The position numbers were made by a program, and so were the translations under genes. A stretch of DNA of 64,000 nucleotides, from positions 41,086-105,085 of the forward strand of contig JBAYGS010000003.1 in assembly GCA_041666545.1 (NCBI GenBank), given 5' to 3'. The notes beneath the pieces are model-generated. The model saw only the letters and a program-made list of their open reading frames with translations. It was not told where the DNA came from and searched no databases. Source of the DNA: Minisyncoccota bacterium. Lineage in GTDB: Bacteria; Patescibacteriota; Minisyncoccia; Phycocordibacterales; JBAYGS01. Shown here in pieces: positions 3,079 through 60,930 of this stretch (its first letter is position 1; the number at the start of each line of letters is the position of its first letter).

Positions 3079-4276
3079 CCATTCGTGTCATTCGTTTTCA
3101 TTCGTAATTTGTGTCGTGTGCCGGTCTACTTTAAAGCTTCATGTTTCAAGCTTTATATCGTATAATTTCCAAATGGATCCTGAACTTAGCCAATTTCTTG
3201 GGGGTAATTCCGCGACACCAAAGCCCGAAACCTCAGCTATCCCGCCGAAACCGCCAACACAGCCGATGCCACCACCCCCGGTGCCACCAAAACCAACAAC
3301 ACCGGAAACCCCGACATCTTTACACGGCCAAACAATCGGCCCGTTTTTTAGCGATTTAAACGGCAACCACGACAACAAAGACGCGGAGCTAAAGCCTTTG
3401 CGAACCTACGAAGGTGATGTTGCCGCTTTTATGAAATCTCACGGCACTTCAACAGTCTCAATCGCCACCGCCGAAAGTCAAAGACGAGCCGCCACCCCGA
3501 TTGAAAGAGTCTCAACTACCACCGGTGAGGAGCCGAAATCCTACACAACTCTAATCGTCACAATCATCAGTTTGATTTTAGTCGTTGGTGGAATCACGGC
3601 GATTTTCTTTGCCGTCAATTCGGTCAAACCGCCGACTACGGTCATAGTCGAGGAGATCAAAACTTTGATTCCAACCGAATCACAGAAGGGAATCGACCTA
3701 AACCTTATCGACACGGCCCGTCTGAAATTAATTTTGCAGAATGAGGTTTCCAACAGCAAAATACCACTCGGCTCATTTTTGGGCTTTTATTTCACCCAAA
3801 CCAACGCCTCGACCGGCAAACAAATTTTACCAGCCCAGCAATTCTTAAAATTATTGGTTAAAAATATCCCCGACTCGCTTTTGCGTACCATTTCCAACGA
3901 CTTTCTTTTTGGTTTGGTCTCTTATGATGGTAATCGGCCATTTTTGATTTTAAAAGTTGATTCCTTCCAGCAGGCTTACGCCTCAATGTTAGAGTGGGAA
4001 AAAGATTTAGCCTACGACTTTTCTGACCTCTTGGCCTATCCAAACGACACTTCGGTCGCCACAACCACCGCCTCCACGAACGCTTTGCTTTTCAACGACC
4101 AGCTCTTTAGTGATACGGTAATTAAAAATAAAGATGTAAGAATTTTGCGAACCGCAACCGGCCGAACCAGAATCCTTTATTCAATTTTGGACCAATCGAC
4201 AATTTTGATCACCCCAAGCGAAAACGCTTTCGGCAAAGTTTTGGAACGCCTTGCCACCGCTTCGTTGGTGAGGTAG
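3068..4276 (+). CDS. hypothetical Pro/Thr-rich protein with a single TM segment (true start probably Met at 3173, MDPELSQ)
   Basis: Long ORF. The 5' end of the tracked ORF overlaps a family-D repeat, so a later start is likely. PxxP-rich region, then a hydrophobic helix LIVTIISLILVVGGITAIFFAV, then an extracytoplasmic domain. Confidence 0.4.
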   Translation: MAVFHSCHSFSFVICVVCRSTLKLHVSSFISYNFQMDPELSQFLGGNSATPKPETSAIPPKPPTQPMPPPPVPPKPTTPETPTSLHGQTIGPFFSDLNGNHDNKDAELKPLRTYEGDVAAFMKSHGTSTVSIATAESQRRAATPIERVSTTTGEEPKSYTTLIVTIISLILVVGGITAIFFAVNSVKPPTTVIVEEIKTLIPTESQKGIDLNLIDTARLKLILQNEVSNSKIPLGSFLGFYFTQTNASTGKQILPAQQFLKLLVKNIPDSLLRTISNDFLFGLVSYDGNRPFLILKVDSFQQAYASMLEWEKDLAYDFSDLLAYPNDTSVATTTASTNALLFNDQLFSDTVIKNKDVRILRTATGRTRILYSILDQSTILITPSENAFGKVLERLATASLVR

Positions 4277-4761: not shown

Positions 4762-4850
4762 CCAATAACCAAGAGACAATAACCAAAATTAAGTTGGTTG
4801 GAATTTGTTTGATTATTGTTTCTTGGATTTTGTTATTTGATTACTATGTC
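4762..4850. repeat. family-B palindromic unit overlapping the comM start region
   Basis: caataaccaagagacaataaccaaaa ... ttgattattgtttcttggattttgttatttg. Confidence 0.65.
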
Positions 4851-8601: not shown

Positions 8602-10551
8602 ATGTCTTCCCACTTAGAAAGTCTAAATCCTCGCCAACACGAGGCCGCTACAACCCTTGAAGGACCTTTACTAATCATCGCCGGAGCCGGAGCCGGTAAA
8701 ACCAAAACTATCGCCCATCGGATTCTTCACCTCATTAAATCTGGCGTAGCACCTCATCAAATTCTCGCCATCACCTTCACCAACAAGGCCGCCAAAGAAA
8801 TGCGGGAAAGGGTTATGGGTCTAATCAGAGGGGATTCCGAGCTCAATCTACCAATTGCCTTTTCTGAACAGCCTTTTGTGAGCACTTTTCATGCGCTCGG
8901 TGTCCACATCATCAGAGAAAATTCTTTGAAACTTGGCCTGACCAGAAATTTTACAATTTTTGACCGCAACGACTCGCTTCGCGCCGTCAAAGAAGCTGTA
9001 AAGTCTGCCGGTTTGGATCCAAAAGATTACGAACCGAAGAAATTTCTGAATGCGATCTCTTGGCAAAAAGGCGAGGGGAGGACCTTGAGCGATTTTGAGG
9101 CGGAGAGTTCGAAAAATTACTTCTCCGAGCTCGTCGCCTCCGTCTGGGCAAATTATGAAAAGGTTTTGAAAGCTGAAAAATCGCTCGATTTCGACGACTT
9201 GCTTTTAAAAGCTGCCAAATTATTGAAAACCGACGCCGAAGTTAGGGGACATTACCGAGATATCTGGAAGTATATCCACATTGATGAATATCAGGACACC
9301 AACAAGGTCCAGTACCAGATTGCCAAATTGTTAATCGGTGAAACTAATAATATTTGTGTCGTCGGCGACGAAGACCAGTTAATTTATGCTTGGCGTGGCG
9401 CCAACATTTCCCACATTTTGCATTTCGAAAAAGATTTCCCAAATACCAAAGTGGTCCTGCTGGAACAAAATTATCGCTCGACCAAAAATATCTTAAGTGT
9501 CGCCAACCAAATCATCTCTAAGAACAAAATCCGGACTGCCAAAAAACTTTTTACCGACAAAAGCGATGGGGATAAAATTGGCCTTTATGCCTCGATTAAC
9601 GAAACTGATGAAGCTCAGTTTGTTGCCCACAAAGCTCTGGAATTAATCCAAAGTGGCGCCTCGCCTAGAGAAATCGCTGTGCTCTACCGAGCCAATTTTC
9701 AGTCGCGAGTTTTGGAAGAAGCTTTTCTGCTACACAACATTCCTTACCAAGTTTTAGGCACGCGTTTTTTTGAACGAAAAGAAGTGAAGGATGTCCTGTC
9801 ATTTATTCGTGGTGCTTTAAATCCCGACAGCTCGGCCGATTTGAAAAGGATTATCAATGTTCCACCAAGGGGCATCGGCAAGGTCACTTTGATAAAAATT
9901 TTGGCCAAGCAGGAGGCAACTTTGCCACCGGCAACCCGGGCCAAGGTTGAAGATTTTAGAGAGCACTTGGCCAACATCAAAGAGGCAGTCAGCTTAAAAG
10001 TTCCTTCTGAGTTGGTGAAATTTGTTTTGCAAGAAATCGGTTTGGAAAAAGAGTTGCTAAACGGTACAGAGGAGGACCACGAGCGTCTAGAAAACTTACG
10101 AGAACTCGCCACTCTGGCAACTCGTTATGATCATTTACCACTTCCTACCGGCACAGAAAAACTTTTGGAAGACGCGGCGCTTGCGACCGACCAGGACGAG
10201 CTGGTCAAAGATGAAAAAGCTGTTAAGCTGATGACAGTCCACGCTTCCAAGGGTTTGGAATTTGATAGCGTTTTCATCACCGGCTTGGAAGACAATCTCT
10301 TCCCACACCGCCAAATCGGCGAAGCCCGTATTTCGGCGGGGGAGGAAGAAGAGGAACGCCGCCTGTTTTATGTGGCCGTCACCAGAGCGCGCAAAAAACT
10401 ATTCCTTTCCTATTCCAGCAGTCGAACCATTTTCGGTTCGTCGCAAATGAACGCACCGTCAGAATTTATCACCGATATCGATGATATTTTCCTCGAAGCC
10501 GAGGAGCGTAATTGGGATTTGCCGGCCGAGAAGATAATTTATTTTGATTAA
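8602..10551 (+). CDS. UvrD/PcrA-family ATP-dependent DNA helicase
   Basis: 649 aa. LNPRQHEAATTLEGPLLIIAGAGAGKTKTIAHRI (Walker A) and DEYQDTN (motif II), with the UvrD C-terminal domain. Confidence 0.9.
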   Translation: MSSHLESLNPRQHEAATTLEGPLLIIAGAGAGKTKTIAHRILHLIKSGVAPHQILAITFTNKAAKEMRERVMGLIRGDSELNLPIAFSEQPFVSTFHALGVHIIRENSLKLGLTRNFTIFDRNDSLRAVKEAVKSAGLDPKDYEPKKFLNAISWQKGEGRTLSDFEAESSKNYFSELVASVWANYEKVLKAEKSLDFDDLLLKAAKLLKTDAEVRGHYRDIWKYIHIDEYQDTNKVQYQIAKLLIGETNNICVVGDEDQLIYAWRGANISHILHFEKDFPNTKVVLLEQNYRSTKNILSVANQIISKNKIRTAKKLFTDKSDGDKIGLYASINETDEAQFVAHKALELIQSGASPREIAVLYRANFQSRVLEEAFLLHNIPYQVLGTRFFERKEVKDVLSFIRGALNPDSSADLKRIINVPPRGIGKVTLIKILAKQEATLPPATRAKVEDFREHLANIKEAVSLKVPSELVKFVLQEIGLEKELLNGTEEDHERLENLRELATLATRYDHLPLPTGTEKLLEDAALATDQDELVKDEKAVKLMTVHASKGLEFDSVFITGLEDNLFPHRQIGEARISAGEEEEERRLFYVAVTRARKKLFLSYSSSRTIFGSSQMNAPSEFITDIDDIFLEAEERNWDLPAEKIIYFD

Positions 10552-10556
10552 CTAAG

Positions 10557-11342
10557 ATGTACGCACGGAAATCACTGGGTCAACATTTCTTAAATTCGCC
10601 AGCCGCGATTAAGGCCATTATAGATGCTGGACAAATCAAAAAGGATGAAATTATTTTAGAAATCGGGCCCGGTCGAGGAGTCTTGACCGGAGCCTTACTT
10701 CAGAAGACCAGCCGAGTCATCGCAGTCGAAAAAGACAGCCGACTAATGCCGGTTTTGCAGCAAAAGTTCACTAAAGAAATAACTTCCGGTGAGCTGACCC
10801 TGGTGAGCGCCGACATTCTTAACTTTTCTCTGACTGACGACTCACCACTCACTACTCATTACAAACTAATCGCCAACATCCCTTATTATCTAACCGGTGC
10901 GATTTTCAGAAAGTTTTTGGAAACCGAAAATCAGCCGGAAAAAATGGTTTTGCTGGTGCAGAAAGAGGTCGCCGACCGGATTCTGGCCAGAGACAACAAG
11001 GAAAGCTTGCTCTCGCTTAGCGTCAAGGCTTTTGGCAAACCAAAATACATCAAAACTGTTAAGGCCGGTTCTTTTAACCCGCCACCGAAAGTCGACTCGG
11101 CAATTTTAGCCATTGATGAAATCTCGCGAGATTTTTTTAAAGACTGCAGTGAAAAGATTTTTTTCAAATTGATTCATCTTGGATTTGCCCATAAAAGAAA
11201 ACAGCTAGTCGCCAACTTGGCCGGCAGTTATAAGAGGGAGAAGATTACAAAAATTCTAGGGCAGTTGGAATTGTCCCCAACCATCCGAGCCGAGGACCTG
11301 AAAATCAAAGACTGGCAACAGCTGGCCAAACTAATCGCCTGA
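10557..11342 (+). CDS. rsmA: 16S rRNA (adenine1518/1519-N6)-dimethyltransferase
   Basis: 261 aa. N-terminal KSLGQHFLNSPAAIKAIIDA and the SAM-binding EIGPGRGVLT motif are typical of KsgA/RsmA. Confidence 0.9.
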   Translation: MYARKSLGQHFLNSPAAIKAIIDAGQIKKDEIILEIGPGRGVLTGALLQKTSRVIAVEKDSRLMPVLQQKFTKEITSGELTLVSADILNFSLTDDSPLTTHYKLIANIPYYLTGAIFRKFLETENQPEKMVLLVQKEVADRILARDNKESLLSLSVKAFGKPKYIKTVKAGSFNPPPKVDSAILAIDEISRDFFKDCSEKIFFKLIHLGFAHKRKQLVANLAGSYKREKITKILGQLELSPTIRAEDLKIKDWQQLAKLIA

Positions 11343-11833: not shown

Positions 11834-12811
11834 ATGAAAAACAATCGGCTCACTTTATGGGCAAGCATTGTTCTGGCACTTTTGATTGTCGGCGGAACTT
11901 GGTATTTCTCCGTTAGCAAAGACAGTCAACAAAATATCGTCTCTGATAGCAGTGGCTTGAAACAAGTGGCTAGTCTGGTGACAGAAAAAGATTCTGATCG
12001 TGATGGTTTGAAAGACTGGGAAGAGTCACTTTGGGGGACTGACCCAATGAATCCTGATACTGACGGCGATGGCACAAATGATAGTGACGAAGTCAAGGCC
12101 GGAAGAAATCCCTTGATTCAGGGACCAAACGATATCTTGCAAAAATCGGACGACATCACACAAGTCACTAACATCTCCGCAAACGAGGAACTTAGCCAGA
12201 CTGACAAATTCTCGCGCGAACTTTTTGCCCGTTATTTAGCTTTCAAGCAGGGCAGTGAGACTTTGGACCCAAAGAGTCAAGAAATCATTATCAATAGTAT
12301 GTTGGCGGAGAACCAGACGACTATTTCTGCTAAAGTTCATTCTTCAGCCGAGCTAAAGGTGAGCCAAGACAATTCGGCAGCTGCCTTAAAAAATTATGGC
12401 AACCTGCTTGGCGGGGCCATTATTTCGTCTAGTCCGAAAAACACCCGAAACGAGATTACGATTTTAAACGAAGCGGCCCAGTCCGGAGATGAGAACAAAA
12501 TCGGAGAGCTGGACCCAATAATCACCGGCTACCAAGATTTGATCAAAGCTGTTTTGACTATAGAAGTTCCAACAGGGGCCATCTCAATCCACATCGCTTT
12601 CATCAATAGTTTGGAAAAAGTCTTGGTTAATATCAAAACTTTGCGACAATTCTTTACTGACCCGATCGCCGCTTTGTCAGGAATCAATAATTACGAGGGC
12701 GCTGTCACCTCTTTGCAATCAAGCTTGACCGCTTTCAGGAGCTTTTTCCAGGTTAAGGGCATCGTTTTCGAACCGACCGCCCCAGGGAACGCGCTTGTGG
12801 GCAACTTTTAG
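11834..12811 (+). CDS. membrane-anchored protein with thrombospondin type-3-like Ca-binding repeats
   Basis: N-terminal TM helix. DSDRDGLKDWEE...DPMNPDTDGDGTNDSDE aspartate-rich repeats. First gene of the co-directional secretion-like locus. Confidence 0.4.
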   Translation: MKNNRLTLWASIVLALLIVGGTWYFSVSKDSQQNIVSDSSGLKQVASLVTEKDSDRDGLKDWEESLWGTDPMNPDTDGDGTNDSDEVKAGRNPLIQGPNDILQKSDDITQVTNISANEELSQTDKFSRELFARYLAFKQGSETLDPKSQEIIINSMLAENQTTISAKVHSSAELKVSQDNSAAALKNYGNLLGGAIISSSPKNTRNEITILNEAAQSGDENKIGELDPIITGYQDLIKAVLTIEVPTGAISIHIAFINSLEKVLVNIKTLRQFFTDPIAALSGINNYEGAVTSLQSSLTAFRSFFQVKGIVFEPTAPGNALVGNF

Positions 12812-16517: not shown

Positions 16518-17276
16518 ATGAGATACGACTCAACAAAACTAAACGAAATTTATAAAACCCTGCCAAAAGATGTTCAGGAAGCGATGTTTTCGGTTGACTC
16601 CGCCAACGCTGTTCAAAAAATCGGCAAAGATAACGGCTTGATGATTGATAAAATGGGTACCCTTGGTCAAATGGTTGGTCTGGTAATGCTCGGTGTCATT
16701 AAATCCGTGAGTTTCGCCAAAGAAATCGAACACGAACTCGGAGTCAACTCAACAACCGCTCAAAAGATTGTCGCTCAAGTAAACGAGCAAATCTTTTTGC
16801 CAATCCGAGAATCGCTCCGGAAAATTCAAGAAAAAGAAATCAAGCCGGAATGGGACAGTGAATCAACCACCACCTTAAACCACGAAGATGTGTTGAAGGG
16901 GATTGAGGAACCCGGAGCAGTCACCGCCGATAAGCAAACCTTACTTAGCGAAAGCAAACCGGCGACCGCACCGGCGCCAGTCAACTTGCCGACCGGACCG
17001 ATGGGGAATGCACCGGCAGAAATCAACGCTTGGCCAAAATCACCTGAAATAACGAAAGCCCCACTCGAAACATCGGCAAAACTAAAAGTGGAAAGCATGG
17101 GAGTAAATATCCTTGAGGATAAAATGAGTAAAGTTGTCCATATCGCTAAAGAAACTAAAATCATTGAGCCAGAACCTTCAAAATTGCCGCCAGTTGCTCC
17201 GAAACCACCAACTCCACCCTCAATGCTGAAGAAGCAATATGGGACAGTTGATCCGTATAGAGAACCGGTAAGCTAG
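16518..17276 (+). CDS. hypothetical protein with a Pro-rich C-terminus
   Basis: Complete ORF inside the cluster. No recognisable motifs. Confidence 0.35.
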   Translation: MRYDSTKLNEIYKTLPKDVQEAMFSVDSANAVQKIGKDNGLMIDKMGTLGQMVGLVMLGVIKSVSFAKEIEHELGVNSTTAQKIVAQVNEQIFLPIRESLRKIQEKEIKPEWDSESTTTLNHEDVLKGIEEPGAVTADKQTLLSESKPATAPAPVNLPTGPMGNAPAEINAWPKSPEITKAPLETSAKLKVESMGVNILEDKMSKVVHIAKETKIIEPEPSKLPPVAPKPPTPPSMLKKQYGTVDPYREPVS

Positions 17277-17306
17277 TTTGTAGTGAGTAGTGGGTAGTGA
17301 GTAGTT
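17277..17306. repeat. family-A repeat (gtagtgagtagtgggtagtgagtag), left inverted copy flanking the four-helix-bundle gene
   Basis: Its exact reverse complement (aactactcactacccactactcactac) occurs at 17664-17690. Confidence 0.8.
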
Positions 17307-17309
17307 AAA

Positions 17310-17666
17310 ATGCAAGTCAAAACTTACAAAGATCTGATTGTTTGGCAAAAGTCTATGGAGCTGGCCACTTTGATTTATAATTTAACCAAAGAGTTCCCAA
17401 GAGACGAGGTCTATGGCTTGTCTTCACAAATCAAACGGGCCGTAATTGCAATCCCATCGAATATCGCCGAAGGACAACGCAGGAAGGGGACGAAAGAATT
17501 TATTCAATTTCTACACATCTCTTATGGGTCTGGAGCAGAACTGGAAACTCAGCTGGAATTAGCCAAAAGACTATCTTTCGGTAATTTGAATAGCTATACT
17601 GTCATAGAAAACCTTTTAAACGAAATCATGCGAATGTTAAATAAGTTAATTTACTCACTTCACTAA
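17310..17666 (+). CDS. four-helix-bundle protein (23S rRNA intervening-sequence protein family; Avd-like fold)
   Basis: 118 aa. DLIVWQKSMELATLIYNLTKEFPRDEVYGLSSQIKRAVIAIPSNIAEGQRRKGTKEFIQFLHISYGSGAELETQLELAKRL matches the TIGR02436 / PF05635 signature closely. Confidence 0.8.
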   Translation: MQVKTYKDLIVWQKSMELATLIYNLTKEFPRDEVYGLSSQIKRAVIAIPSNIAEGQRRKGTKEFIQFLHISYGSGAELETQLELAKRLSFGNLNSYTVIENLLNEIMRMLNKLIYSLH

Positions 17667-17698
17667 CTACTCACTACCCACTACTCACTACCAACTCC
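17652..17698. repeat. family-A repeat, right inverted copy (overlaps the stop of the four-helix-bundle gene)
   Basis: ctcacttcactaactactcactacccactactcactaccaactcc. Confidence 0.8.
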
Positions 17699-17699
17699 T

Positions 17700-18137
17700 A
17701 TGCGTTTCCAAACACCGCAATTCATAGAAATCGAGGACAAAATTTTTGGGCCTCTCACCCTGAAACAGTTCATCTACCTTTTGGGTGGCGCTGGTTTGGC
17801 TTTCATTTTTTACCGATTCCTTAATATTTTTGTGGCCGTACCCCTAATCATTGCCTCCTTGGGCTTTGGTATCGCTTTGGCTTTTTATAAGATCAACAAC
17901 AGACCATTTGCCTATATTATTGAAGTCGCGGCCAAATATTTCCTACGCAACAAACTTTACATTTGGAAGAAAAAAGATAAACCGGTAGTCCAGAAGACGG
18001 AGAGCAGTGAAGAAGACCTGGTTTCCGGGCTTTATGTCCCCAAACTTTCTGACAGCAAATTAAAAGATCTGGCCTGGAGCCTGGACATCAAAAATGTTGA
18101 GAACCCTGGGACTTCCGAGACCATGCGAGGAAAATAA
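17700..18137 (+). CDS. small membrane protein with two TM helices (possible VirB3-like component)
   Basis: 145 aa. Two hydrophobic helices near the N-terminus, then a charged tail. Positioned upstream of the VirB4-like ATPase as VirB3-like proteins often are. Context only. Confidence 0.3.
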   Translation: MRFQTPQFIEIEDKIFGPLTLKQFIYLLGGAGLAFIFYRFLNIFVAVPLIIASLGFGIALAFYKINNRPFAYIIEVAAKYFLRNKLYIWKKKDKPVVQKTESSEEDLVSGLYVPKLSDSKLKDLAWSLDIKNVENPGTSETMRGK

Positions 18138-32628: not shown

Positions 32629-33861
32629 ATGTTCAGATGGTTTAAAGGAGTGCCGACTTTGTCGCGTGACCCAAATAAGATCGAGGAGCTTTTGACTCGC
32701 GGCGTCGAGCGAATTTTTCCTTCCCCGGAATTCCTTAAAAAGGCCTTGCTAAGTGGGCGCCAACTAAAAATTTATCTCGGTATCGATCCGACCGGGCCGA
32801 CCCTGCATCTGGGGCATGCCATCCCGATTATGAAGCTCGCTGAATTTCAAGCTTTAGGCCACCAAGTTATTCTTTTAATCGGGGACCAAACCGCCATGAT
32901 TGGCGACCCGACCGACAAAAGTGCCACTCGGCAAAAACTGACTCGGGCGGAAGTGTTGAAAAACTGCCGAAATTACAAAAAACAAGCCTCAAAAATTCTG
33001 AAATTTACCGGCACCAACAAGGCCGAACTTCGTTACAATTCGAAATGGCTCAACAAACTTTCCTTAACCAGTCTATTGGAGCTGGCCTCAAACCTGACTT
33101 ACGCTCAAACCATTAAACGTGATATGTTCCAGCAAAGGATCAGTGAGGGTCGAGACCTTTATTTGCATGAGTTTCTGTATCCTTTGATGCAGGGCTACGA
33201 TTCCGTGGCGATGGATGTTGACGGGGAAGTTGGTGGCAACGATCAAACCTTTAACATGTTGGTTGGTCGCGATTTGCTCAAAAAAATCAAAAACAAAGAA
33301 AAGTTTGTAATCACCAGCAAACTGCTGGAAGACACCTCTGGCAAGAAAATGGGGAAGACCGAAGGCAACATGGTGACTTTAAGTGATGCGCCGAACGAAA
33401 TGTTTGGAAAAATTATGAGCTGGCCGGACACCCTGATCCCAATCGGTTTGGAGCTCCTAACTTTTCTGCCGATGAATGAAGTTAAAAATCTCGTGAGCAG
33501 CCTGACTAAAGGAGTTAACCCTAAGGAGGTTAAAAGTCGGCTGGCTTTTGAGGTGGTGAAAATTTACCACAACGCTAAGGCGGCTGAAGGGGCCGTGAAA
33601 AATTTCAATGCAACGTTTAAAGCCGGAGCGATTCCCGAAAATGTTTTGACGGTAAAAACTGCTCCGGATTTGCTTTCCGAAGTTTTACTCAAAGCGAAGA
33701 TGGTGGAATCAAAAACCGAATTTCGTCGTCTGGTTTCCGAAGGAGCGATCGAGGATTTGGATGGTAAAACTAGAATTAGTAATCCAACTGCGAAGGTGGA
33801 AAAAACCACTAATCTGAAAATTGGGAAAAAAAGATTTATTAAAATCGAGGTTGAAAAGTAA
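32629..33861 (+). CDS. tyrS: tyrosine--tRNA ligase
   Basis: 410 aa. HLGHAIPIMK (HIGH motif), KMGKTEGN (KMSKS variant), and a C-terminal S4-like domain. Confidence 0.9.
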   Translation: MFRWFKGVPTLSRDPNKIEELLTRGVERIFPSPEFLKKALLSGRQLKIYLGIDPTGPTLHLGHAIPIMKLAEFQALGHQVILLIGDQTAMIGDPTDKSATRQKLTRAEVLKNCRNYKKQASKILKFTGTNKAELRYNSKWLNKLSLTSLLELASNLTYAQTIKRDMFQQRISEGRDLYLHEFLYPLMQGYDSVAMDVDGEVGGNDQTFNMLVGRDLLKKIKNKEKFVITSKLLEDTSGKKMGKTEGNMVTLSDAPNEMFGKIMSWPDTLIPIGLELLTFLPMNEVKNLVSSLTKGVNPKEVKSRLAFEVVKIYHNAKAAEGAVKNFNATFKAGAIPENVLTVKTAPDLLSEVLLKAKMVESKTEFRRLVSEGAIEDLDGKTRISNPTAKVEKTTNLKIGKKRFIKIEVEK

Positions 33862-34767: not shown

Positions 34768-35298
34768 TTACTCAGCGTTGGTAAAAATCTCTTGGACCTC
34801 ATCATTTTCCTCTAAAGCCTCAATCAAAGCCTCAAGCTTGGCGCCATCTTCCTCGGAAATCGGGGCCATGGTTTTCGGCATCCAGCCTTCGTGGGTTTTC
34901 TCGAAGGCCCAACTGGCGCTCCCGGGCGCGGCGAGGGCAGAACCGTGCTCCGAAAGAATAAATTTGATTTCCTGGGCGGCCTTATTGCGATTGTCGGTCA
35001 AAGCGTCAATGATGAGAGCTACTCCGCCTGGGCCATAGGCCTCATAGACAATTACCTCCATATTTTGCGAGCCGGCCTCGGTAGCCTTTTTCACGGCACG
35101 ATCAATGTTATCACTCGGCATGTTAGCGGCGCGAGCTTTTTCAATGATGCTCTTTAAGCCAGGCGAAGAAGTGTTGCCGTTAGCTTTTTTAGCTTCCAAA
35201 GTGATTAAACGGGAATATTTGGAAAAGATTTTGCTTTTCTTGGCATCCGAAACTGCCTTCTTATTTTTTACTTTTGACCATTTGTTGTGACCGGACAT
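34768..35298 (-). CDS. yebC: YebC/PmpR family DNA-binding regulator (short form)
   Basis: 176 aa. MSGHNKWSKVKNKKAVSDAKKSKIFSKYSRLITLEAKK is the canonical YebC N-terminus. Adjacent to ruvC as in many bacteria. Confidence 0.8.
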   Translation of the reverse strand: MSGHNKWSKVKNKKAVSDAKKSKIFSKYSRLITLEAKKANGNTSSPGLKSIIEKARAANMPSDNIDRAVKKATEAGSQNMEVIVYEAYGPGGVALIIDALTDNRNKAAQEIKFILSEHGSALAAPGSASWAFEKTHEGWMPKTMAPISEEDGAKLEALIEALEENDEVQEIFTNAE

Positions 35299-35508
35299 GG
35301 GAAGTGAGTAGTTAGTAGTGGGTAGTGAGTAGTAAAAGAAAGACCACTATACTTTATACCTAATATTTACCCCAGGCTACTTGACTAGTCGATTGGTTTA
35401 AGATATTACAGGAGTAGACAGAATTACAGCTCGAGCTGTTTTCGACTGTTCTTAACAAATAATCCTAAAGCATTTTAAAATGCTCCGGTAAATCAACGAG
35501 GAACCTGT

Positions 35509-41907: not shown

Positions 41908-42375
41908 ATGAGAATTATAAGCAAAAGTTTGGCCGAAACCGAAAAATTCGCCCAAGATTTTTTAAATAAAATTAAACCAAAAGAAAACGACGCGACGGTC
42001 GTCGGTCTACATGGTGATTTAGGATCTGGAAAAACCGCTTTTGTTAAACTGATTGCGAAAAATTTAGGCATTACTGAAAACATCACCAGCCCCACTTTTG
42101 TCATTATGAAAAACTACCCACTTATTCTTCAAAACTTCCCAACTTCAAAACTTCCCAACTTCAAAACTCTCACACATATTGACGCCTACCGTCTCGACCG
42201 TGGCAGTGATCTTGCCAAGCTTGGTTTTGCTGATTTACTAAATAATCAAGAAAATCTGATTCTGCTTGAGTGGCCGGAAAAAGTGGCCGATGTTCTACCG
42301 AAAGACTATGTAAGGATTGATTTTAAATTTATTGACGAAAACACCAGAGAAATTTCTACTGATTTTTGGCTTTAA
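41908..42375 (+). CDS. tsaE: tRNA threonylcarbamoyladenosine biosynthesis protein TsaE (YjeE ATPase)
   Basis: 155 aa. VGLHGDLGSGKTAFVK (Walker A) ...TSPTF...HIDAYRL core, with an in-frame 16 aa insertion encoded by a family-E repeat. Confidence 0.8.
   Translation: MRIISKSLAETEKFAQDFLNKIKPKENDATVVGLHGDLGSGKTAFVKLIAKNLGITENITSPTFVIMKNYPLILQNFPTSKLPNFKTLTHIDAYRLDRGSDLAKLGFADLLNNQENLILLEWPEKVADVLPKDYVRIDFKFIDENTREISTDFWL
42127..42168. repeat. family-E repeat (aaaacttcccaacttc x2) inside the tsaE coding sequence, in frame
   Basis: Encodes LILQNFPTSKLPNFKT between conserved TsaE segments. Confidence 0.75.
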
Positions 42376-44350: not shown

Positions 44351-44391
44351 AAATGCTAGAATGTAGCTATATTTTTCATAATTCCTAATTC

Positions 44392-46842
44392 GTGAATCCT
44401 AAATCTACCCCAAAAAGACTGGTTTTACTCGACGCTCACGCGATACTGCACCGCGCTTACCATGCCTTGCCGGAATTTTCTTCAAGCAAAGGGGAACCGA
44501 CCGGGGCACTTTACGGGCTTTCAGCGATGCTCATCAAGATTATTGCTGATTTGAAGCCCGACTATTTGATTGCCGCTTACGATTTACCCAAGCCGACCTA
44601 TCGCCACGAAGCTTTCAAAGACTACAAAGCCGGCCGAGCCAAGGCCGACCCGGAACTGGTGTCGCAAATGAGGCGCTCGCGTGACGTTTTCACCGCTTTT
44701 AATATTCCAATTTATGACAAGGAAGGTTTTGAAGCGGATGACATAATCGGCACAATTGTCGAAAAGCTAACAGCTAAAAGCCAAAAGCTAAAAGCTGATG
44801 TAGACATAGTGATTGCCTCGGGCGACATGGACACCTTGCAGTTGGTTTCGGACGACAAGGTTCGAGTTTATACTCTGAAAAAAGGTATTAAAGACACGAT
44901 TATCTATAACGAAAAAGGTGTTATTGAACGGTTTGGTTTTGGGCCGGAACTTTTGCCGGATTACAAAGGTTTGCGCGGGGACCCGTCGGATAATATTCCG
45001 GGGATAAAAGGAATTGGTGAGAAGACCGCCACGATTTTGATTACCAATTTCGGTTCGGTTGAACAGATTTATAAACAAATTAAAAAAGACGAAAAGCCAT
45101 TACTTAAGGCAGGGATTACGCCCCGAATTGTTGAGCTTCTGAAAACCAACGAAGAAGAGGCGCAATTTTCCAAAATGCTTGGCACAATTCGTAGAGACGC
45201 GCCGATTGACTTCAGATTGCCGGAGCAGACCTGGAAGGAAAGTTTGGACGTTACAAAAACCGAGGAATTGTTCAGCGAACTGGAATTTCGAGCGCTCGGG
45301 ACACGCTTTAAGGAAACTTTAAATAAAGAAGCGCCAAATTCAAAAACCCAGGTTCCAAATAAATCTCAAATCATAAAGTCAGAAAATTCAGAAACTACAC
45401 ACTACTCACTACCCACTACTCACTTACCATCCGACTTCTTCGAAACCTCGCTTGCCCTCTGGGTCGTCAATTCTAACCTGACCAATCCGACCATGGAGGA
45501 TGTTTTGAATTTTGGCCGGACGGATGATTATGAAAAAGCCAAGAAGTTGATTTTTGAAACACTCAGGCAAAGAAAAAGCGAGAGAGTGTATGAGGAAATC
45601 GAGAAACCTTTGATTCCTGTCGTAAAAGCGATGGATGAGCGGGGAGTGAAGATTGATACGGAACTTCTCAAGAAACTTTCGGTTGAATATCATAAGAAAC
45701 TGGATGGCTTGGAAAAAGAAATTCACCAATTGGCCGGTGAGGAATTTAATGTGGCTTCCCCGAAACAATTGGGAGAAATTTTGTTCGTTAAGATGGGCTT
45801 GGCTGGCAAAAGGCAAAAAAAGACTGCAACTGGGGCGTTTTCTACCAAGGAAAGCGAACTTGAAAAATTGCGAGAGTCGCATCCGATTATAAGTTTGATT
45901 TTGGAGTATCGCGAATTTGCCAAATTGCTTTCCACATATATCGACACGATTCCGACTCTGGTGGACAAGAATAACCGGCTACACACGCATTTTTTGCAAG
46001 CCGGCGCCGCGACTGGGCGAATGGCCTCGGAAAATCCGGGTTTGCAAAATATTCCCAACAAAACTGAATTGGGCCGAGCTATTAGACAAGCTTTCGTTGC
46101 CGAAAAAGGTTTTAAACTTTTGGCGCTCGATTATTCGCAGATTGAACTCCGGATTGCCGCGTTTTTGTCGGGCGATAAAAAGTTGATTGAGATTTTTAAG
46201 AACGGCGAAGATGTTCATACAGCGGTGGCGGCGGAAGTTTTCGGTGTGCCGGGCGACAAAGTCCACAAAGATATGCGTCGCAAAGCCAAAGTGATTAATT
46301 TCGGCGTGATGTACGGGATGGGGGTGAATGCGCTTCGGACTAATCTGGGCGCCGGCACAACTCGTGAGGAAGCGCAGAAATTTTACAACGACTATTTTGA
46401 AAAGTTTTCAGGTTTGGCCAAATATTTAGATAAGGTGAAAGCTGAAACCGCGAGACAAGGTTACACCGAAACTTTTTTTGGCCGAAGGCGATATTTTGAA
46501 GGAATTAATTCTAAATTACCGTTTATTCGTGCCGCTGCTGAACGAATGGCGATTAACGCGCCGATTCAAGGCACCGAGGCCGACATTGTGAAGCTCGCGA
46601 TGATTAAAATTTGCGAATACATCAAATCGGAAAAACTTGAGGAACAAGTTTTTCCGATTCTCCAAGTCCATGACGAATTGGTTTATGAAGTTCGCGAGGA
46701 TTTAATTTCCAAAATCGCTCCAGCTATCAAAAAAATTATGGAATCAGTTATTCCACCCGAAAAAGTTGCCGGCATCGTCTGTGTCGCCGAAGCGTCCGAG
46801 GGGGAGAGGTGGGGGGAGATGAAGAAGGTAGAAGGTATATAG
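44392..46842 (+). CDS. polA: DNA polymerase I (5'-3' exonuclease + polymerase domains)
   Basis: 816 aa. N-terminal 5'-3' exo (LVLLDAHAILHRAYHALP; GIGEKTA). C-terminal pol motifs (LALDYSQIELRIAA; YGMGVNAL; QVHDELVYEV). The linker carries in-frame repeat-derived insertions. Confidence 0.93.
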   Translation: MNPKSTPKRLVLLDAHAILHRAYHALPEFSSSKGEPTGALYGLSAMLIKIIADLKPDYLIAAYDLPKPTYRHEAFKDYKAGRAKADPELVSQMRRSRDVFTAFNIPIYDKEGFEADDIIGTIVEKLTAKSQKLKADVDIVIASGDMDTLQLVSDDKVRVYTLKKGIKDTIIYNEKGVIERFGFGPELLPDYKGLRGDPSDNIPGIKGIGEKTATILITNFGSVEQIYKQIKKDEKPLLKAGITPRIVELLKTNEEEAQFSKMLGTIRRDAPIDFRLPEQTWKESLDVTKTEELFSELEFRALGTRFKETLNKEAPNSKTQVPNKSQIIKSENSETTHYSLPTTHLPSDFFETSLALWVVNSNLTNPTMEDVLNFGRTDDYEKAKKLIFETLRQRKSERVYEEIEKPLIPVVKAMDERGVKIDTELLKKLSVEYHKKLDGLEKEIHQLAGEEFNVASPKQLGEILFVKMGLAGKRQKKTATGAFSTKESELEKLRESHPIISLILEYREFAKLLSTYIDTIPTLVDKNNRLHTHFLQAGAATGRMASENPGLQNIPNKTELGRAIRQAFVAEKGFKLLALDYSQIELRIAAFLSGDKKLIEIFKNGEDVHTAVAAEVFGVPGDKVHKDMRRKAKVINFGVMYGMGVNALRTNLGAGTTREEAQKFYNDYFEKFSGLAKYLDKVKAETARQGYTETFFGRRRYFEGINSKLPFIRAAAERMAINAPIQGTEADIVKLAMIKICEYIKSEKLEEQVFPILQVHDELVYEVREDLISKIAPAIKKIMESVIPPEKVAGIVCVAEASEGERWGEMKKVEGI
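45395..45428. repeat. family-A repeat inside the polA coding sequence, in frame
   Basis: actacacactactcactacccactactcacttacc encodes TTHYSLPTTHLP in the exo-pol linker. Confidence 0.75.
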
Positions 46843-46865
46843 TATTAAGTATATGGTATAAAAAA

Positions 46866-48608: not shown

Positions 48609-48658
48609 CACTATTTTTTATACTATATACCTAATACTTTATACTATATACTTTACCT

Positions 48659-51146: not shown

Positions 51147-51578
51147 CTAAAGCGGCAAATCAAAGGCGAGAAAACCCGGGCCGCTAACTAAAAGTGAAAG
51201 CAAGATTACGATGAGTAGTAAGTAAACCCGCTTATTGTAAACAATTGCACCGGCCCATCTCGGAGTTTTGGATTTCAATGCTTGAATTAGCAAAATCAAA
51301 ATCAAAACTAAGGCAACTGGTTGGGTGAATAATCCGATAACCAAAAAAATTCCGCCCAAAACCTCTAAGAGGGCAATTATTCTGGCCAGAATTGATTTTG
51401 GGGCCGAGAGACTCCTGTAAAGCTGGTAACCGGAATAAATAATAATCAAACCGGCCACGATCCGAAGAAGCGTCGGTCCGGCGAGTCCGTAGGTCAATAA
51501 ATTTGGAAAAATACTTAACATGGCATTATGATAGCATAATGAATAATCAATAACCAAGAAACAATAACCAAGAAACAA
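51147..51578 (-). CDS. DoxX family membrane protein (likely start at internal Met, MLSIFPN)
   Basis: 4 TM helices. LLRIVAGLIIIYSGYQL...GGIFLVIGLFTQ is DoxX-like. Confidence 0.55.
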   Translation of the reverse strand: MFLGYCFLVIDYSLCYHNAMLSIFPNLLTYGLAGPTLLRIVAGLIIIYSGYQLYRSLSAPKSILARIIALLEVLGGIFLVIGLFTQPVALVLILILLIQALKSKTPRWAGAIVYNKRVYLLLIVILLSLLVSGPGFLAFDLPL

Positions 51579-53212: not shown

Positions 53213-54190
53213 CTAAGAGTAAAGAATTTGATGCTTGGGGCAGAAGTGAGCGCTGCGACCGCCGAGTTTGAGTTTGGTGATGATACCGGAGCATCTTTTC
53301 TTGCCACATTTTCCGCTAGTCTTTTGATAAGCCTGATGGTGATACTGGAAATTGCCCTTGGTGCCGAGTGGAGTGCGATAATCCGAAGTTGAATCACCGC
53401 CAAATTGGATGCCTTTTCTCAAAATCAGCTTCATTGAGTCGAACATCTTTTTTAGCTTTAGTGCAGGAATTTTAGAGACAATCGAGAGGGGATGGATGCC
53501 AGAGTCCCAAAGAATTTCGTCAGAATAAATATTGCCAATGCCGGATACAACTTTTGGGTCCATGAGAACCTGTTTGATTCTGCTTTTGGGCCAAGTGAAT
53601 AGACGGCCTTGGAATTTTTTGAAATCAAAACTTTTTTCGAGGGGTTCTGGGCCAATGTCGGCCAAATGCCCAGTTTCGTGAGCGGTTTTGGTTGGTAGGA
53701 GAGTGACTTTAGCGAACTTTCTCACATCGGAGAGAGCCAAATGTTTGCCATTTGTAAACGAAATAACTAAATGAACGAATCGGCTGTAGGGGTCTTTAAG
53801 CGCCTCGGGCGCAATCGCGATCCAAGGGGAAGCTGTTAGCTGTTGGCCTTTAGCTTTTAGTTTTTCGGATTTACTTGAAACTTTTAACTTGGAACTTGGA
53901 ACTCGCCTGTACGTTCCGTACAGGAGTTGGCCGGTCATTTTCATGTGAACCAGAATTGTCTGACCGTTTGAGAGGTTTATCAAAACATTTTTACCGCGCC
54001 TTTCGACATTTTTAATTTTCGCGCCAATTACGCTGACCCGAAATTTTCGGAAAAATTTCGGGTCCTTAATATTATCTTTTCCCTCATGAATTTTTCCGCC
54101 ATAATCGGTCCAAGCATCAGAAATAGTAAGGCCGGAAATCAGCCGGTCTAGCATTGTTGCGGTAGTGTGGACTTCGGGAAGTTCGGGCAT
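53213..54190 (-). CDS. mutM: formamidopyrimidine-DNA glycosylase (Fpg/MutM/Nei family)
   Basis: 325 aa. N-terminal MPELPEV (catalytic Pro2/Glu3), H2TH region, and a C-terminal zinc finger CGKKRCSGIITKLKLGGRSAHFCPKHQ. Carries an in-frame repeat-derived insertion. Confidence 0.85.
   Translation of the reverse strand: MPELPEVHTTATMLDRLISGLTISDAWTDYGGKIHEGKDNIKDPKFFRKFRVSVIGAKIKNVERRGKNVLINLSNGQTILVHMKMTGQLLYGTYRRVPSSKLKVSSKSEKLKAKGQQLTASPWIAIAPEALKDPYSRFVHLVISFTNGKHLALSDVRKFAKVTLLPTKTAHETGHLADIGPEPLEKSFDFKKFQGRLFTWPKSRIKQVLMDPKVVSGIGNIYSDEILWDSGIHPLSIVSKIPALKLKKMFDSMKLILRKGIQFGGDSTSDYRTPLGTKGNFQYHHQAYQKTSGKCGKKRCSGIITKLKLGGRSAHFCPKHQILYS
53848..53906. repeat. family-E-like repeat inside the fpg coding sequence (minus strand), in frame
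   Basis: The minus-strand sequence encodes VPSSKLKVSSKSEKLKAKGQ, inserted in Fpg. Confidence 0.7.
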
Positions 54191-56757: not shown

Positions 56758-56918
56758 GAAGTTAAGTATATAGTATAAGGTATATAGTATAAAGTATCAG
56801 ATAATTCCACAGGAATGGATAAATTTGCATTTTTTGAAAGTCTCTGTTAGTATTGCCCTTGTTCGTTTTTCTGATGTCTTTAACTACAAACTACTCACTA
56901 CCAACTACTAACTAACTT

Positions 56919-60297: not shown

Positions 60298-60930
60298 TTG
60301 TTATTTTATCTTTCTTACATTATGTTAGATTATCTCGACCCGCTATTTTTAATCAAAGCTCTCGGACTTATCGGAGTTTTGCTCATAATTTTTGCCGAAT
60401 CGGGGTTATTTTTTGGGTTTTTCTTGCCTGGTGATTCGCTCCTATTCACTGCCGGACTTTTGGCCTCGCAGGGTTATCTGAATATTTATTACCTCTTACC
60501 CGGGGTATTTTTGATGGCAGTTCTGGGAGATACCTTCGGCTACACCTTTGGTCGGAAAATCGGCCCCAAAATTTTTACGCGCGAAGATTCGTTATTTTTT
60601 CACAAAAAACACGTTGAGCGCGCCAAAAACTTCTATGAAAAGTATGGTAACAAAACCATTGTTTTGGCGCGGTTTATTCCGATTGTCAGGACTTTTGCTC
60701 CGATTGTGGCTGGGGTTGGGCAGATGGATTATCGGAAATTTTTGACCTATAATATTTTTGGCGGTCTGGCTTGGACGGTTTTGCTTGCCGGAGGCGGTTA
60801 TTTTCTTGGCGAGATTGTGCCCGGGATTGAAAAGTATGTCACTTTGATTTTGGTTCTGATTATTTTAACCTCATTTTTGCCGGCTATCTCGGAAATCTGG
60901 CAGGTTTGGCGCCAAAAGCACAGCGCTTAG
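60298..60930 (+). CDS. DedA family membrane protein
   Basis: 210 aa. GFFLPGDSLLFTAGLLA and ARFIPIVRTFAPIVAGVGQM are DedA/VTT motifs. Confidence 0.8.
   Translation: MLFYLSYIMLDYLDPLFLIKALGLIGVLLIIFAESGLFFGFFLPGDSLLFTAGLLASQGYLNIYYLLPGVFLMAVLGDTFGYTFGRKIGPKIFTREDSLFFHKKHVERAKNFYEKYGNKTIVLARFIPIVRTFAPIVAGVGQMDYRKFLTYNIFGGLAWTVLLAGGGYFLGEIVPGIEKYVTLILVLIILTSFLPAISEIWQVWRQKHSA

Follow-up and report, generated by a model that had tools for sequence, protein, structure and literature searches.

We analysed a 64,000-nt stretch of the genome of a Minisyncoccota bacterium (assembly GCA_041666545.1, contig JBAYGS010000003.1, positions 41,086 to 105,085 of the forward strand; hereafter the window, position 1 being its first letter), in which polA, the gene for DNA polymerase I, contains two 35-nt segments of repeat DNA read in frame. 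These segments belong to a genome-wide set of short heptanucleotide arrays, typically of 4-6 units and about 30-40 nt in length, which a subclade of Candidatus Taylorbacteria (Parcubacteria) carries in its intergenic spacers and 5′ leaders. We hold, with moderate confidence, that they are simple-repeat arrays that grew by slippage, were homogenised within the genome and survived inside proteins only at permissive sites. Growth and re-patterning on the spot are a likelier origin for the repeat DNA of polA than the insertion of ready-made units. It has the look of a tolerated side product, left by a process that makes repeats in this lineage, and not of a new function. The arrays most likely have no function of their own in PolA, for which the consequence is probably nil.

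The polA features on which the argument rests are the following.

44392 to 46842, plus strand: polA, recognised by its intact open reading frame (ORF), its Pfam domains, its identity to the PolA sequences P0001 and P0002, and its catalytic motifs.
44762 to 44796, plus strand: site 1, the array AAAAGCT AACAGCT AAAAGCC AAAAGCT AAAAGCT (Tandem Repeats Finder, TRF, period 7, 5.0 copies).
45394 to 45428, plus strand: site 2, the family-A array ACTACAC ACTACTC ACTACCC ACTACTC ACTTACC (TRF, period 7).
44373 to 44407, plus strand: a tentative, degenerate (NNAATTC)5 array across the GTG start codon, with no TRF call in the window.
46823 to 46860, plus strand: an array over the stop codon, (AGAAGGT)2 followed by (GTATATA)3.7 (TRF; comparison with the closest relative, L081).

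The ORF encodes a DNA polymerase I of 816 amino acids with the architecture of a 5′-nuclease joined to a family-A polymerase (Pfam domains 5_3_exonuc_N at residues 9-182, 5_3_exonuc at 185-283 and DNA_pol_A at 424-809), and the Pfam domain scan recognised no 3′-5′ exonuclease domain. Its catalytic motifs fall in invariant columns of the ortholog alignment (A1). Candidatus Taylorbacteria and other Parcubacteria supply the PolA proteins that match best, with an identity of 100% for P0001, 84% for P0002 and at most 70% for the remaining matches. For the structural context we used an AlphaFold2 model computed from a 53-sequence alignment, with a mean predicted local distance difference test score (pLDDT) of 85.

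At site 1, five 7-nt units make up the 35 nt, and the codons AAG CTA ACA GCT AAA AGC CAA AAG CTA AAA GCT (44764-44796) are translated as KLTAKSQKLKA, residues 125-135. A first-pass annotation of the window had placed this coding segment at 44765-44797, one base away, and had described the repeat as (aaagc)n; the peptide is indeed there, but the repeat is the heptamer AAAAGCT. The annotation had also expected the repeats to sit in linkers, which is right for the family-A array, in the disordered linker between the domains, but not for the upstream array, which lies inside the N-terminal domain of the 5′-nuclease. In the model, residues 125-135 form the end of a helix (115-127) and the loop 128-136 that precedes a strand (137-142), with a local dip of the pLDDT to 71-80. 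When aligned to solved structures, the polymerases of M. smegmatis (Pol I, 6vde) and Taq (1taq) have a gap of 6 residues at this point.

The alignment of PolA from related genomes, which had been proposed as a check, showed that most relatives lack the arrays: the GT-to-SGD segment that holds site 1 has 16 residues in about 60% of about 140 related PolA genes and 21 in the window. The 35-nt array thus brings a net gain of just 15 nt, hence it overlies pre-existing codons, namely those of the conserved E-K-L-K. Heptamer arrays occupy site 1 in nine lineages, and in each the unit tracks that lineage's own E-K/Q-L/I/V-K codons, which argues for growth in place. By ortholog comparison, the unit is AAAAGCT in the window, AAAAACT in L003 and L082, AAACTAT in L081, GGTCAAA or AAGTCNA in L010, L008 and L087, and AAATCAT or AAAATCG in L086 and L155. 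In fact, an unexpanded site 1, such as GAG AAA CTA AAA AAA GAC in L032, already amounts to about 1.7 copies of AAAAACT, which points to the birth of the array in place from a proto-repeat and not to the import of a foreign element. The first-pass annotation had read the polA repeats as repeat units fixed as in-frame coding insertions; the repeat DNA is in frame, lineage-specific and at permissive sites, but the idea of inserted units is only partly supported, given the net 15 nt and the units that follow the local codons.

The same 5′-nuclease loop carries inserts of another kind in other Parcubacteria (Nomurabacteria- and Vogelbacteria-like), which are GC-rich, palindromic and in frame. We observed them in L049, L078, L132, L133 and L142 (about 3343-3444 or 2843-2944 in locus coordinates), and also in L050, L128 and L064; one example is CCCGTTAGAAGTCGCGAGGGCTCGCAGCGACCCTCTACTTCTAACGGG, encoding NPVRSREGSQRPSTSNG, which resembles the Rickettsia palindromic elements (RPE) discussed below. 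The loop is therefore a generally permissive site.

Site 2 has the form (ACTACNN)5 over 35 nt (TRF consensus ACTACTC, 4.4 copies, 45394-45424). Its codons ACT ACA CAC TAC TCA CTA CCC ACT ACT CAC TTA CCA (45394-45429) are translated as TTHYSLPTTHLP, residues 335-346, or TTHYSLPTTHL(P) by the span of the array; the segment at 45395-45428 reported in the first-pass annotation was one base short at each end. These residues are the C-terminal end of the interdomain linker, for which the model gives no secondary structure (312-348) and a pLDDT below 50, that is, disorder, over residues 313-343. Heptamer arrays were found in only 4 of 109 PolA linkers (window, L081, L082 and L010), at differing linker positions, and these lineages are the same ones that carry arrays at site 1; it is the lineage, and not the site, that governs where linker arrays occur. 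The family-A word had been recognised earlier as the one flanking the gene for a four-helix-bundle protein, and this holds exactly: the 20-mer ACTACTCACTACCCACTACT occurs without mismatch at 17286 (minus), 17666 (plus), 35314 (minus) and 45401 (plus), the first, second and last of these being the flanks of that gene and polA, whereas none is expected by chance. Near copies lie at 17680 and 56890, and the word CACTACTCAC, with at most one mismatch, has 19 matches against 1.29 expected.

The two polA arrays are part of an excess that is specific to period 7. In a lag scan of the window, period 7 accounted for 18 arrays and period 14 for 10, each of the other periods within 4-15 gave at most 3, and shuffled sequences gave 0; TRF gave 23 period-7 rows of 2-6.3 copies, mostly 4-5. 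The 1.06 Mb of related loci likewise had more arrays of period 7 than of any other period (38 and 28 arrays), chiefly in a few of the lineages. The unit families of the window are ACTAC+NN (family A), GTATA+NN, AAAAGCT, the period-8/16 unit AACTTCNN and the 14-mer GGTTATTGTTTCTT. Arrays fill spacers or abut start or stop codons at yebC, holA, ruvA, rpsT, polA and the four-helix-bundle gene (17310 to 17666, TIGR02436, weakly Avd-like), and roughly one third of them are within ORFs. Two clear coding arrays belong to polA, two to fpg and one to tsaE; ksgA and the N-terminal end of a DoxX protein may have others. An Rfam scan of the window returned tRNAs only and no match for the arrays. The arrays that the comparison draws on, besides those of polA, are these.

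17272 to 17310, minus strand (the G-less strand): family-A array in the spacer 5′ of the four-helix-bundle gene, by sequence comparison.
17660 to 17700, plus strand: family-A array in the spacer 3′ of the same gene, inverted relative to 17272-17310.
35298 to 35336, minus strand: family-A array directly 5′ of the yebC start, without G when read in the sense of yebC.
56881 to 56914, plus strand: family-A array directly 5′ of the rpsT start.
53831 to 53865, minus strand: fpg array of the AAAAGCT family, sense AAAAACT AAAAGCT AAAGGCC AACAGCT AACAGCT (EKLKAKGQQLTA).
53872 to 53907, minus strand: second fpg array, sense AGTTCCA AGTTCCA AGTTAAA AGTTTCA AGT.
42127 to 42168, plus strand: in-frame tsaE array, CTTCAAAACTTCCCAA repeated 2.6 times with period 8/16 and preceded by family-A-like units.

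The resemblance between the upstream polA segment and the fpg insertion, already noticed in the first-pass annotation, is therefore one of family, since both are AAAAGCT-type heptamers on the sense strand, and fpg holds as a parallel case, to which tsaE and the start and stop of polA are added. The Fapy_DNA_glyco domain of the window Fpg has 162 residues against a Pfam profile of 117 positions. At the polA stop, the last six codons, KKVEGI, and the TAG come from the array at 46823-46860; in L081 a (TAGCGTN) array (12419-12446) gives GTG TAG at the same end. The polA-start array is weak in the window and clear in L081 (9983-10014, TRF period 7, 4.6 copies; region 9979-10018). Just 5′ of it, an extended -10-like box, TGCTAGAAT (window 44354-44362), is conserved in both.

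In L081, PolA is 84% identical to that of the window, and synteny extends for about 22 kb. L081 has five-unit, 35-nt arrays at exactly the two polA sites, with another unit at each.

L081, site 1: AAAAACT ATCAACT ATAAACT ATAAACC ACAAACT.
L081, site 2: ACTATAA ACCATAA ACTACCA ACTATAA ACTTACC.

No ortholog was found to carry the window's peptide in non-repetitive DNA: the site-2 peptide of L081, TINHKLPTINLP, is related to TTHYSLPTTHLP and is itself encoded by a heptamer array. Its ACTAT+AA/CA unit is the intergenic family of L081's own genome, the counterpart of ACTAC+NN in the window. At site 1 the same G/A difference recurs in 5 of 5 units (P = 8.5e-5, by simulation), and at site 2 nine of the ten differences fall in unit positions 5-7 (P = 0.003). 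The same holds elsewhere: the two genomes share the positions of the arrays in fpg, in tsaE and in the spacers upstream of yebC, holA, ruvA and rpsT, but not the units and, in some cases, not the lengths, and the L081 tsaE has (ACTATAA)4-5 at the loop where the window has its array. The differences between the two sets of arrays are concerted. Arrays were probably present at both polA sites already in the common ancestor of the window and L081, and were re-patterned later.

The reading frame was kept open in these arrays at the DNA level. A perfect (AAAAGCT)n or (ACTATAA)n contains TAA, which falls in frame every third unit because 7 is not a multiple of 3. We considered the five coding arrays of this TAA type (window polA site 1, window fpg, L081 polA sites 1 and 2, and L081 tsaE), and in all five the very unit that would bring a stop into frame in a perfect array is altered, its TAA having become CAA, TCA or CCA; at site 1 of the window, it is the variant unit AAAAGCC, with its GCC, that abolishes the stop. 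For family A (ACTACTC), the three sense frames are open and the three antisense frames are closed, so only the observed orientation could code. This editing of stops indicates that the peptides are the read-out of DNA arrays that was kept open, and not the reverse. Both polA sites are, according to the structure model, permissive.

We therefore propose a sequence of three steps. Local proto-repeats would first have become arrays through slipped-strand or tandem duplication of 7-nt or 14-nt units. Arrays with similar units would then have been homogenised within the genome, the simplest means being ectopic gene conversion among the scattered copies, and this would have given each genome its own unit, ACTAC+NN here and ACTAT+AA/CA in the 84% relative. 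Within genes, a selective filter would have retained only arrays with a net change that is a multiple of 3, an open-frame orientation and mutated in-frame TAA codons, the survivors being located in a surface loop or a disordered linker. In PolA, the outcome would be a helix-to-strand loop of the 5′-nuclease longer by about 5-6 residues and 12 residues supplied to the flexible interdomain linker.

The arrays are real and reproducible. L162, a contig assembled from a different sample, matches the window at 99.97% identity over 6305 nt; its arrays are the same, and its two single-nucleotide polymorphisms lie elsewhere. Two further sequencing runs and one ENA assembly are 100% identical over neighbouring array-bearing regions. 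An assembly artefact, which the first-pass annotation had asked to be excluded, is thereby set aside. Exact-protein look-ups retrieved nothing but strains that are virtually the same, from four samples and without any polymorphism in the arrays, and a metagenome scan with PolA found no further relative above about 77% identity. Chance low-complexity sequence or misassembly of metagenomic reads is a practically negligible explanation, favoured by nothing beyond the general misassembly risk of repeats and opposed by 4-6 observed 20-mers against 0 expected, by the identical assemblies from other samples, by the intact ORF, and by arrays at the same positions in an independent relative.

Some observations weigh against growth by slippage and homogenisation, and we gather them here. 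There was no copy-number variation of the arrays among 4-5 independent assemblies, hence they are not highly unstable on short time scales. Array length varies little around 5 units, and each of the two polA arrays measures exactly 35 nt in the window as in L081, a uniformity equally compatible with a discrete element or with some constraint on length. The net gains at site 1 across lineages are +3, +5, +6 and +10 residues and never the +7 of three clean unit duplications, so extra indels or the replacement of older sequence must be assumed. In the family-A unit the five ACTAC positions carry 1.3-2.0 bits against 0.69 bits for the other two, and pure slippage does not predict such a conserved core. 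Finally, no donor or recipient tracts of gene conversion were resolved between the arrays, and we only infer conversion. The narrow length, the conserved core, the gains other than 7 and the invariance among strains leave room for a mobile element or for a functional or trans-templated one.

If the arrays were discrete miniature mobile elements of about 35 nt and five units, copied by a transposase or recombinase acting in trans, the polA copies would be ready-made insertions, and this we regard as unlikely. The exact 20-mer at four unlinked loci and the uniform size of about five units are what such an element would leave, as are the inverted array pairs around variable cargo (the four-helix-bundle gene; the polA-holA spacer, window versus L081); moreover, a Y1 transposase similar to the tyrosine transposases associated with repetitive extragenic palindromic (REP) sequences, or RAYT, adjoins polA in L081, and palindromic in-frame inserts occur at the same PolA loop in other Parcubacteria. 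However, when six family-A copies were aligned, the likeness was limited to the 35-nt array, and neither shared or conserved flanks nor terminal inverted repeats nor target-site duplications were found among them. The family-A sequence does not fold (0 kcal/mol on both strands), and the AAAAGCT array forms a weak stem only (-5.4 kcal/mol). In addition, the unit at site 1 follows the local codons in nine lineages, overlaying existing codons with a net gain of 9-18 nt. The RAYT was itself considered as the driver of the arrays and rejected: although it lies between inverted heptamer arrays, the REP hairpins that go with it (AACGGTGTCAGGAACCGTT) bear no relation to the arrays, and the window, the only part of the genome searched, contains no such gene and no hairpins of that type.

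The polA-holA spacer deserves a description of its own. An inverted array pair marks both of its ends, at 46835-46860 and 48617-48655 in the window and at 12419-12446 and 13697-13729 in L081. The cargo consists of two small ORFs in the window, and of the RAYT-like Y1 transposase with its own REP hairpins and a 100-aa ORF in L081. Such pairs may mark a recombination or insertion hot spot.

Likewise unlikely is a role as functional cis-elements, in which the arrays would bind a factor through a 5-nt core in every 7 nt, or act as unstructured G-less 5′ leaders or promoter parts; the core would have co-evolved with its factor (ACTAC here, ACTAT in the relative), and the coding copies would be collateral or internal regulatory sites. 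This would suit the arrays that abut start codons in both genomes at yebC, holA, ruvA, rpsT and polA, the conserved core with its variable dinucleotide, the genome-wide switch of the core, the -10-like TATACT inside the array 5′ of holA, and the stability among strains. Among 20 upstream arrays, 14 contain less G than C when read on the sense strand; we did not retain this orientation bias, 14 G-poor arrays against 6, as it is a trend only and the gene calls are crude. Orientation is not uniform in any case, the array 5′ of the four-helix-bundle gene being C-less on the sense strand. Furthermore, several unrelated unit families coexist within one genome, Rfam gives no match, and there is no sign that the interiors of polA, fpg or tsaE need such a site. 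The conservation of unit families across lineages, which we tried as a sign of function, was also unconvincing, since the similarity of units (0.089) is barely over that of a composition-matched null (0.058). Two more specific candidates were discarded: HutP-like binding to UAG-N4 arrays, as the sense transcripts have CUA and not UAG, and G-quadruplex formation, as the arrays have no G runs.

Slightly less likely again is a genome-specific system acting in trans that writes or maintains five-unit arrays. It could be a factor that recognises the 5-nt core in a register of 7 nt, or else an activity that adds or repairs repeats from a template. If it existed, it would explain at once the conserved core with its dinucleotide, the length of about 35 nt, the genome-wide switch of units and the exact dispersed copies; the core would co-evolve with it (ACTAC versus ACTAT), and the polA, fpg and tsaE arrays would be its collateral products at permissive sites.

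Selection acting on the peptides themselves, for instance to extend a basic helix end in the 5′-nuclease and to provide a Thr/Pro-rich linker, with the DNA periodicity as a secondary effect, seems improbable. The peptide of the relative has a similar pattern (TTHYSLPTTHLP versus TINHKLPTINLP), its length is the same in the window and L081, and x-K-L/I/V-K recurs at site 1 in many lineages, but this similarity follows directly from the units in rotating frames, and non-coding spacers are filled with these same words. The segments are missing from most relatives, and the region is predicted to be disordered.

The known system closest to the arrays is the excess of heptameric simple repeats of the GGGNATC type near ORF ends in Xanthomonas and Nostoc (Rehm et al. 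2015, PMC4692102). As in those genomes, the units of 7 nt are in tandem, the arrays are short, dispersed and of several families per genome, the excess is specific to period 7, and the arrays lie within about 50 nt of ORF starts or stops, some of them over stop codons (PMC4692102). The preferred copy number is four in that type (PMC4692102) and about five in the window. The window arrays differ in belonging to Patescibacteria, in having A/T/C-rich units and in lacking G-quadruplex potential; they go beyond that type in that orthologous arrays can be compared between relatives and the concerted replacement of units is visible. The cyanobacterial short tandemly repeated repetitive sequences STRR1-3 have the consensus units CCCCAGT, TTGGTCA and CAACAGT. 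The window arrays share with this type the head-to-tail 7-nt units, the dispersed period-7 excess and the intergenic location near ORF ends, but they are not STRR1-3 proper, as the host is Taylorbacteria-like and the units are AAAAGCT, ACTACNN, GTATANN and others.

RPE (Ogata et al. 2000, summarised in PMC10969869) are palindromes of about 100-150 bp, regarded as mobile and encoding a conserved peptide. They share with our case a repeat of non-coding type tolerated in frame in unrelated housekeeping ORFs, at fold-compatible sites and many times per genome (PMC10969869), whereas the window repeats are non-palindromic 35-nt arrays that overlie codons and whose peptide differs with each frame. 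In terms of RPE and miniature inverted-repeat transposable elements, the window arrays have the in-frame presence in housekeeping ORFs at fold-compatible positions, but neither palindromes or terminal inverted repeats, nor discrete element boundaries or target-site duplications. In Borg genomes, in-gene repeats are reportedly near-perfect, with unit lengths divisible by three. Borg tandem repeats evolve rapidly, arise independently and add disordered segments to proteins (Schoelmerich et al. 2023, PMC9879509), and these are the points of likeness. The window unit is 7 nt, which is not divisible by 3, so that its frame rotates and stop-avoiding variants are required, and its arrays are short and imperfect.

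REP sequences are hairpins, and a RAYT gene is flanked by its own REPs. The window arrays recall the REP/REPIN-RAYT system in being short dispersed repeats at gene boundaries, often in inverted pairs, with a RAYT-like gene in the L081 polA-holA spacer; they differ in that the heptamer arrays form no hairpin, the window has no RAYT, and the L081 RAYT is flanked by a different hairpin repeat. Nor do they behave as phase-variable simple sequence repeats, which are perfect tracts whose changing copy number turns a frame on and off: the window units are not perfect copies (85-87% matches), 4-5 independent assemblies carry the arrays unchanged, and the hosts are essential housekeeping genes. In the paper library searched, nothing connected Patescibacteria to heptameric repeats.

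Proteins of Patescibacteria (the candidate phyla radiation) have lineage-specific insertions of unclear origin. Here the origin would be readable from the DNA, as 7-base arrays of intergenic type that grow into loops and linkers of PolA, Fpg and TsaE, edited by selection where they code (stops removed) and re-patterned in concert in each genome. This would offer a concrete and testable path from the instability of simple repeats to new disordered protein segments in very small genomes, and it would extend the heptanucleotide-repeat excess, so far a matter of cyanobacteria and xanthomonads, to a third, unrelated group with comparable orthologous arrays.

A few further observations concern other loci. 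The inverted family-A arrays make up the entire flanking spacers of the four-helix-bundle gene, which gives it the look of a gene cassette. In L081, the fpg insert (17592-17621) and a nearby spacer (18107-18136) consist of (AAACCCC/AAACCCT)-type heptamers, which complement TTTAGGG-like units, probably by coincidence. In ksgA/rsmA (10557 to 11342), the stretch GACTCAC CACTCAC TACTCAT TACAAAC (window 10830-10868) is family-A-like and encodes LTDDSPLTTHYKL; it has zero net insertion relative to the Pfam RrnaAD profile, and could be either a chance likeness or a codon-overwriting array.

Two differences between strains, or assembly errors, are unrelated to the arrays: L164 lacks 70 nt (window 60369-60438) inside a gene of the DedA/VTT domain, and in L168 the gene of a class-I tRNA synthetase is split by a 1-nt deletion at about window position 33062.

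A 14-mer family, TTGGTTATTGTTTCTTGGTTATTG, has seven copies in the window against 0 expected, at 4763 (minus), 4809 (plus), 18962 (plus), 19390 (plus), 51548 (minus), 51562 (minus) and 51626 (plus). Every copy is at the 5′ end of an ORF in the sense orientation and would read LVIVSWLL; the copies may supply hydrophobic N-termini, for example to the DoxX protein (51147 to 51578), or be a leader element.

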